Shown: positions 29,300-29,670, numbered from the stretch's first letter. The stretch: DNA of 40,009 nucleotides from Escherichia coli (GCF_003334765.1 NZ_QOWT01000036.1), one strand, 5' to 3'. A program made the numbers and translations. Notes: a model not told the origin generated them from the sequence alone.

Positions 29300-29670
29300 T
29301 AATTTGTCCTTTTCAGTCAGTGCAAAAGTCGAGTAAAAGGCATAACCTATCACTGTCATAGGTAAGAGCTTAGATCAGGTGATTGCCCTTTGTTTATGAG
29401 GGTGTTGTAATCCATGTCGTTGTTGCATTTGTAAGGGCAACACCTCAGCCTGCAGGCAGGCACTGAAGATACCAAAGGGTAGTTCAGATTACACGGTCAC
29501 CTGGAAAGGGGGCCATTTTACTTTTTATCGCCGCTGGCGGTGCAAAGTTCACAAAGTTGTCTTACGAAGGTTGTAAGGTAAAACTTATCGATTTGATAAT
29601 GGAAACGCATTAGCCGAATCGGCAAAAATTGGTTACCTTACATCTCATCGAAAACACGGAGGAAGTATAG
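29300..29670. promoter_or_regulatory. Divergent dsbG/ahpC control region (expected OxyR-dependent ahpC promoter)
   Basis: A 371-bp spacer between divergent dsbG and ahpC. It contains acctat-N7-ataggt (29345-29363), i.e. CTAT-N7-ATAG spacing followed by cttag, reminiscent of OxyR tetranucleotide spacing. Exact operator boundaries are not determined. Confidence 0.4.

Follow-up and report, generated by a model that had tools for sequence, protein, structure and literature searches.

A perfect palindrome in the dsbG-ahpC spacer of Escherichia coli is very probably the center of a known OxyR site that fronts an upstream ahpC promoter

The dsbG and ahpC genes are divergent neighbors in the dsbG-ahpC-ahpF locus of Escherichia coli, and the spacer between them carries a perfect palindrome that a first-pass annotation of the DNA likened to OxyR motifs, proposing that it could place dsbG under OxyR control next to ahpC. 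The question raised by this locus is whether the palindrome belongs to a genuine OxyR site and, if it does, which of the two genes the site serves. The analysis covered one strand of a 40,009-nucleotide stretch of E. coli DNA (GCF_003334765.1, NZ_QOWT01000036.1), referred to here as the window, whose coordinates are used throughout (Table 1).

The divergent arrangement itself is borne out by the RefSeq annotation of identical DNA and by matches to the NCBIfam equivalogs for DsbG (424.7 bits against a cut-off of 124) and AhpC (341.7 bits against a cut-off of 272). The segment from the dsbG stop to the end of ahpC (28553-30234) has 0 mismatches to MG1655, and adding 609274 to a window coordinate gives the coordinate in NC_000913.3, an offset that was checked over the same segment. 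A 1.8-kb stretch around the site is matched in 5,423 of 5,426 complete E. coli genomes. A T-rich run in the citR-dsbG spacer, near 28426, marks the point leftward of which the window is shifted by 1 base relative to MG1655, so that the DNA comes from a close relative of that reference and not from the reference itself. E. coli LF3-1 and PJ-T13 carry IS1A and ISVsa5 copies at the 3' end of dsbG; an annotated insertion sequence CDS overlaps the end of the dsbG CDS in these strains, and the insertions lie outside the dsbG-ahpC spacer.

Table 1. Features of the dsbG-ahpC spacer and its flanking genes, in window coordinates
Feature	Position	Strand	Details
dsbG CDS	28553-29299	-	248 aa; RefSeq annotation of identical DNA and NCBIfam equivalog
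Candidate leftward sigma-70 promoter	29333-29360	-	ATGACA (29360-29355), 16-bp spacer, TTTACT (29338-29333)
Four-element OxyR motif, dsbG-proximal site	29336-29372		37 bp; AAAGgCataAcCTAT-cactgtc-ATAGgTaagAgCTTA; 16 of 20 consensus positions
Palindrome ACCTAT-cactgtc-ATAGGT	29345-29363		Central CTAT-N7-ATAG dyad; T-N11-A LysR-type box; center 29354
P2 -35 hexamer	29383-29388	+	TTGCCC; identity 0.91; 10 bp past the end of the OxyR motif (29372)
P2 extended -10	29403-29411	+	TGtTGTAAT; identity 0.87; 17-bp spacer from the -35
P2 transcription start	29418	+	Predicted from the conserved -10; SMRT-Cappable-seq TSS at NC_000913.3 638692 is the same base
Structured leader/short RNA, STnc70 homolog	29433-29526	+	Rfam RF02069; 42.7 bits against a gathering score of 40
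dsbG transcription start	29457	-	TSS table of Kim et al. 2012, 637954(-) in U00096.2; 158-nt leader
Classical ahpC-proximal OxyR site	29574-29610		Center 29592; 13 of 20 consensus positions, among the top five scores; identity 0.83
ahpC CDS	29671-30234	+	RefSeq annotation of identical DNA and NCBIfam equivalog

The palindrome is present exactly as first described: the window reads acctatcactgtcataggt, the 6-bp arms are fully complementary over the 7-nt spacer, and 8 of 9 positions pair when the arms are extended to 9 nt. Its central cTATCACTGTCATAg is both a perfect dyad and a T-N11-A box, as would be looked for in the dyad of an OxyR site. The ATAG-N7-CTTAG spacing that had been pointed out is also there, with ATAG at 29358-29361, gtaagag, and CTTAG at 29369-29373 (span 29358-29373). 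As a palindrome, sequence aside, it is unremarkable and occurs at about the chance rate, with 13 palindromes of any sequence having 6-bp arms and a 7-nt spacer in the window against roughly 10 expected. The specific form CCTAT-N7-ATAGG occurs once in the window against 0.03 expected.

The motif recognized by OxyR is described in the literature as four ATAG elements spaced by heptanucleotides, and the consensus ATAGnTnnnAnCTAT-N7-ATAGnTnnnAnCTAT, with 20 specified positions, was scored at every position of the window. The highest score in the 40 kb belongs to the dsbG-proximal motif, which is centered on the palindrome. A score of 16 was not attained in any of 200 first-order Markov simulations; their maxima were 14 in 58 cases and 15, the highest value seen, in 9. 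Two further matches, one at the dsbG stop and upstream of citR (28524-28560, 14 of 20) and one in AT-rich DNA (3391-3427, 15 of 20), are therefore at chance level, since the simulation maxima reach 14 and 15. Toledano et al. 1994 reportedly described the OxyR motif as four ATAG-type elements placed at 11-bp intervals.

Conservation was assessed by scanning one genome per species for DsbG, which gave 70 loci, in 58 of which dsbG and ahpC are divergent neighbors; in Pectobacterium dsbG is present and ahpC does not lie alongside it. The 59 spacers compared (E. coli plus the 58 orthologs) come from Escherichia, Citrobacter, Salmonella, Klebsiella, Raoultella, Enterobacter, Kosakonia, Pluralibacter, Yokenella, Trabulsiella, Leclercia, Silvania, Pseudocitrobacter, and other genera, and identity to E. 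coli was calculated over the 55 non-Escherichia sequences. The core CCTATCACAnnCATAGnnAAGAnC, in the strict form CCTAT-N7-ATAG, was found in 50 of the 59 spacers; the 80% consensus of the orthologous sites is AnCCTATCACAnnCATAGnnAAGAnC, and these sites score 11 to 16 of 20 against the OxyR consensus. Mean identity is 0.80 for the palindrome, compared with 0.63 for the whole spacer and 0.43 for the adjacent dsbG-proximal part of the leader. Within the right half (ATAGgTaagAgC), the internal T and A, both conserved, are positions that the OxyR consensus specifies. The outer elements are weakly conserved, with a mean identity of 0.45 for the left one and 0.39 for the CTTAG element, so that the element stressed by the first-pass annotation is the least conserved part of the motif, against 0.80 for the palindrome core. 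The reading of the sequence as an OxyR-type site nevertheless holds, on the strength of the best consensus match in the window, the strong conservation, and published statements that place two OxyR sites in this spacer. A further conserved block, GTTCACAAAGTTGTCTTG, occupies 29547-29563, past the STnc70 terminator and ahead of the ahpC-proximal OxyR site, amid sequence that is highly variable in length.

The dsbG-proximal site lies just upstream of the -35 hexamer of a rightward sigma-70 promoter, termed P2 here, which OxyR would activate. The distance from the OxyR motif to the P2 -35 is held at 10 to 11 bp in orthologs that have TTGCC in that range, and the spacer between the -35 and the -10 is 17 bp in every scored ortholog but one. 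The center of the OxyR site is at -64 relative to the P2 start. In SMRT-Cappable-seq data, 345 reads from M9 medium start at 638692, 304 of them ending at 639670, after ahpC, and 93 reads from rich medium share this start. The TTGCCC-17-TGTAAT pair is likewise listed for the ahpC side of the spacer in a genomic SELEX study of RpoD, which places P2 among "constitutive" RpoD promoters. P2 is active without added peroxide in both M9 and rich medium, as the SMRT-Cappable-seq reads show; this activity and the "constitutive" listing were counted against the reading in which P2 would depend on OxyR.

A simple promoter scan misses P2 by its need for an A at position 2 of the -10, and reports only a TTGTAA/GATAAT pair that is inside the ahpC-proximal OxyR site. 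The SMRT-Cappable-seq operon table includes a further forward ahpC start at 638628, which corresponds to the central base of the palindrome (29354), and minor ahpC starts at 638860 and 638880 (window 29586 and 29606). The Cappable-seq supplements of Ettwiller 2016 gave no hit for six coordinate prefixes of the region, and the supplements of Adams 2021 contain the 3' end described below and no transcription start for the spacer region. Two inverted repeats that involve the promoter (29383-29390 with 29433-29440 and 29401-29407 with 29438-29444) were rejected as structures: their 5' arms are the P2 -35 and -10 elements themselves, and the partner arms show no covariation.

Downstream of P2, the transcript enters a structured region that matches the full length (positions 1-149) of the Rfam model RF02069 for STnc70, an enterobacterial sRNA candidate from Salmonella, with a score above the family threshold and with the consensus structure in place. 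Three helices of this region are conserved with compensatory changes in the ortholog alignment: one reads GCCUG/CAGGC or GCCAG/CUGGC, another is a CUGAA...UUCAG hairpin, and the last is a terminal GC-rich stem followed by a U-run, in which one position varies among CG, GC, AU, and GU pairs. The leader ends in this hairpin (29495-29514) and a T-run (29515-29526). Term-seq has placed a plus-strand 3' end at 638796, window 29522, inside the U-run; it was classed as "orphan," lies 149 nt upstream of ahpC, and has a Rho score of 0.27 (not Rho dependent) and an intrinsic terminator score of 5.17. The E. coli K-12 terminator stem has an A/G mismatch and a G-U pair, which fit abundant read-through into ahpC. 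The 5' end at 29418 and the 3' end at 29522 are each reported, in separate data sets, and the long reads are mostly ahpC read-through. With an intrinsic terminator 3' end at 29522 and transcripts that read through into ahpC, P2 would thus yield both a short RNA, about 105 nt in length, and a long mRNA for ahpC.

The E. coli homolog, which scores above the gathering score, shares the terminal GC hairpin and U-run with the STnc70 family; it differs in the mismatch and G-U pair of its stem, in the many P2 transcripts that continue into ahpC, and in its length. Salmonella arizonae and diarizonae have an insertion of about 57 nt in the first STnc70 hairpin, aligned at about 29453, which is absent from E. 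coli and accounts for a 149-position model matching just 94 nt here. A literature search for STnc70 returned only papers on STnc700. Farther downstream, a terminator between ahpC and ahpF at 30394-30396 (+) follows the hairpin GGGTGCTGCGGCACCC and a T-run; Term-seq 3' ends at 639668 and 639670 and SMRT-Cappable-seq termination sites at 639669 and 639670 show that most ahpC transcripts stop there. The Rfam families V_AS5 and CssrA score far under their gathering thresholds near this terminator.

The second OxyR site of the spacer, the classical ahpC-proximal one, is 238 bp from the first, center to center (29354 and 29592). Its promoter, P1, starts at 29646/29647, which puts the site center at -54/-55, and SMRT-Cappable-seq recorded 207 reads in M9 and 157 in rich medium from 638920 (window 29646). 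The center is one helical turn closer to the start than at P2, on the same face. Across genera the two sites lie anywhere from 204 to 307 bp apart, without helical phasing, and DNA looping between them was dropped as an explanation on this account. Because their separation varies while the gap to P2 is fixed, each OxyR site appears to be linked to the promoter next to it rather than to the other site.

Two OxyR sites in this spacer are not new to the literature. According to papers that cite Zheng et al. 2001, OxyR works through two sites between dsbG and ahpC, and it binds the dsbG control region. A full-text literature search for the site sequence and for dsbG-proximal footprinting found nothing. 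Zheng and colleagues reportedly predicted a site computationally and confirmed it by DNase I footprinting, with its center 54 bp upstream of dsbG and 238 bp ahead of the ahpC site already known; the dsbG-proximal site is said to give rise to a second ahpC transcript and the ahpC-proximal site to the induction of both dsbG and ahpC. The computed center at 29354 fits both of the reported numbers (29354 - 29300 = 54; 29354 + 238 = 29592), and the anatomy of P2 fits the reported second ahpC transcript. The dyad is presumably that same dsbG-proximal site, with OxyR binding in the spacer taken from papers that cite the work. Compared with the E. coli K-12 site (Zheng et al. 2001), it occupies the same locus with apparently the same bases and no substantive difference. 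The finding is thus the rediscovery of an already known OxyR site, the two spacer sites having been published since 2001.

Taken with the fixed coupling to P2, the palindrome is very probably the central dyad of the dsbG-proximal OxyR site, fronting a conserved upstream promoter of ahpC. An oxidized OxyR tetramer bound at -64 would recruit RNA polymerase to P2, presumably by the mechanism that OxyR uses at P1. P2 transcripts cross the STnc70-type leader and its intrinsic terminator (3' end 29522) before continuing into ahpC. The two sites share a conserved four-element motif directly upstream of a sigma-70 promoter for ahpC. They differ in that the P1 motif abuts its -35, whereas a 10-bp gap separates the P2 site from its own, and in that the P1 site matches the consensus less well (13 of 20 compared with 16 of 20). 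That the P2 site center is one helical turn more distant from its start than its P1 counterpart was counted against this explanation.

The proposal that the site places dsbG under OxyR control survives only in part: the OxyR site is there and dsbG is cited as an OxyR target, whereas the fixed coupling to the rightward P2, the location of the site within the dsbG leader, and the failure to find a conserved leftward promoter all speak against it. Direct control of dsbG, by activation of a leftward promoter or by repression through occlusion or a roadblock in the leader, is judged rather unlikely. The upstream sequence printed in Kim et al. 2012 for the dsbG start matches the window, and 29457 is the only mapped dsbG start found; because dsbG transcription starts there, the site falls at about +103 of the leader and not upstream. 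Between the site and the dsbG ATG, the ortholog alignment contained no conserved leftward -35/-10 pair, and the Shine-Dalgarno region (TGAnTTTAnAAGGA) alone is conserved. An activator geometry like that of P1 would put the transcription start on the ATG itself and leave no room for the conserved AAGGA Shine-Dalgarno. Zheng and colleagues, moreover, reportedly found the induction of dsbG to depend on the ahpC-proximal site. In favor of direct control, a weak candidate leftward promoter overlaps the site: its -35 falls in the part of the OxyR motif taken up by the palindrome, its -10 overlaps the left edge of the motif (29336), and the RpoD SELEX study lists the ATGACA/TTTACT pair for dsbG. This promoter is not conserved outside Escherichia (in the orthologs the -35 is replaced by ATGGCT and the -10 region varies), and no mapped start belongs to it; if it is used, occlusion by OxyR would be expected. 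The distance from the site to the dsbG ATG, about 55 bp in E. coli, also favors a link to dsbG. The site center lies 53 to 57 nt from the ATG in 45 of the 46 orthologs measured, the exception being Yokenella (43 nt, 12 nt shorter), and this length is held though the intervening sequence is poorly conserved (0.43) and the spacer is elsewhere free to lengthen or shorten. The constant distance hints at some leftward constraint and was counted against the main explanation.

Published reports on dsbG diverge. According to a paper citing Zheng et al. 2001, dsbG is activated by OxyR through two spacer sites; a review says that transcriptomics suggest possible repression by oxidized OxyR, which weighs for direct control; RNA-seq found dsbG unchanged at sublethal H2O2, which weighs against it; and DsbG protein was 2.6-fold up in a delta-ahp strain, which weighs for it. 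The P2 start (29418, +) and the dsbG start (29457, -) are convergent, and their transcripts overlap by 40 bp over 29418-29457, an arrangement in which transcriptional interference or antisense pairing between the two transcripts is possible. The dsbG -10 (TGgTATCTT, 29466-29474) lies within hairpin 2 of the STnc70 region. The location of the OxyR site does not suit activation of dsbG from upstream, and any direct effect that it has on that gene is more plausibly negative or indirect; direct control could possibly take the form of repression or interference rather than classical upstream activation. At oxyR-oxyS, a single OxyR site between opposed promoters activates one and overlaps and represses the other. 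The dsbG-ahpC spacer resembles this system in that the candidate ATGACA-16-TTTACT promoter overlaps the OxyR site; unlike at oxyR-oxyS, the leftward promoter here is a candidate that lacks conservation, and with the mapped dsbG start on the far side of P2 the two units converge instead of diverging.

Other accounts of the palindrome set OxyR aside altogether. CTAT-N7-ATAG is a generic T-N11-A box of the LysR type, and a LysR-family gene, citR (CitR/YbdO, 27443-28345), adjoins dsbG, so the dyad could be the operator of another regulator such as CitR/YbdO, with its likeness to OxyR sites a coincidence. This is very unlikely, given that all 37 bp of the OxyR consensus are covered by the match, the internal T and A among them, that the same spacer holds a classical OxyR site, and that published statements assign two OxyR sites to it; with the full-length OxyR match, no other regulator is needed. 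LysR proteins also tend to work from the divergent region upstream of their own gene, and for citR that region is on the far side of dsbG. Conservation arising from a coding or RNA function is fainter still as a prospect. An in-frame ATG within the dyad (29357-29359, -; start at 29359) opens an ORF of 268 aa that would extend DsbG, but this frame is open and in register only in Escherichia and Salmonella, with stops or a shifted frame elsewhere while the dyad is still conserved, and RefSeq starts dsbG at 29299; the extension was rejected as very likely untranslated. As RNA, the palindrome is part of the mapped dsbG leader, and the minimum-free-energy fold shows it as a hairpin; against a function for this hairpin, the centroid fold lacks it, shuffled sequences fold as well as the leader does (z = -0.52), and the arms are invariant, hence offering no covariation in support of pairing. 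That the palindrome arose by chance and has no function fits the near-chance number of such palindromes in the window, but its probability is close to nil in view of the best OxyR score in the window, conservation across genera within a variable spacer, which already refutes it, and a fixed spacing to a verified promoter.

The assignment of the palindrome to an OxyR site at P2 also allows a broader, and unlikely, possibility, in which the OxyR site, P2, and the terminated RNA form a unit: peroxide-activated P2 would mainly make the STnc70-type RNA of about 105 nt (29418-29522). The RNA might then be an sRNA, or it might serve in attenuation and set how much transcription reads through into ahpC. 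P2 fires head-on into the dsbG promoter, and the same site would then modulate dsbG by transcriptional interference or antisense pairing. If this is true, interference between P2 and dsbG could explain why dsbG has been reported as induced, repressed, and unchanged.

A reader working from the DNA alone can evidently recover a genuine regulator site, and the biology of the locus gains little from the recovery as such. What is new is the phylogenetic footprint, the fixed coupling of the site to P2, and the link to public transcription start and 3'-end data. The useful residue is a map of the spacer in which the OxyR site is tied to P2, P2 transcripts carry an STnc70 leader, and P2 converges on the dsbG promoter. 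This map offers a concrete, testable reason for the inconsistent responses of dsbG to peroxide.
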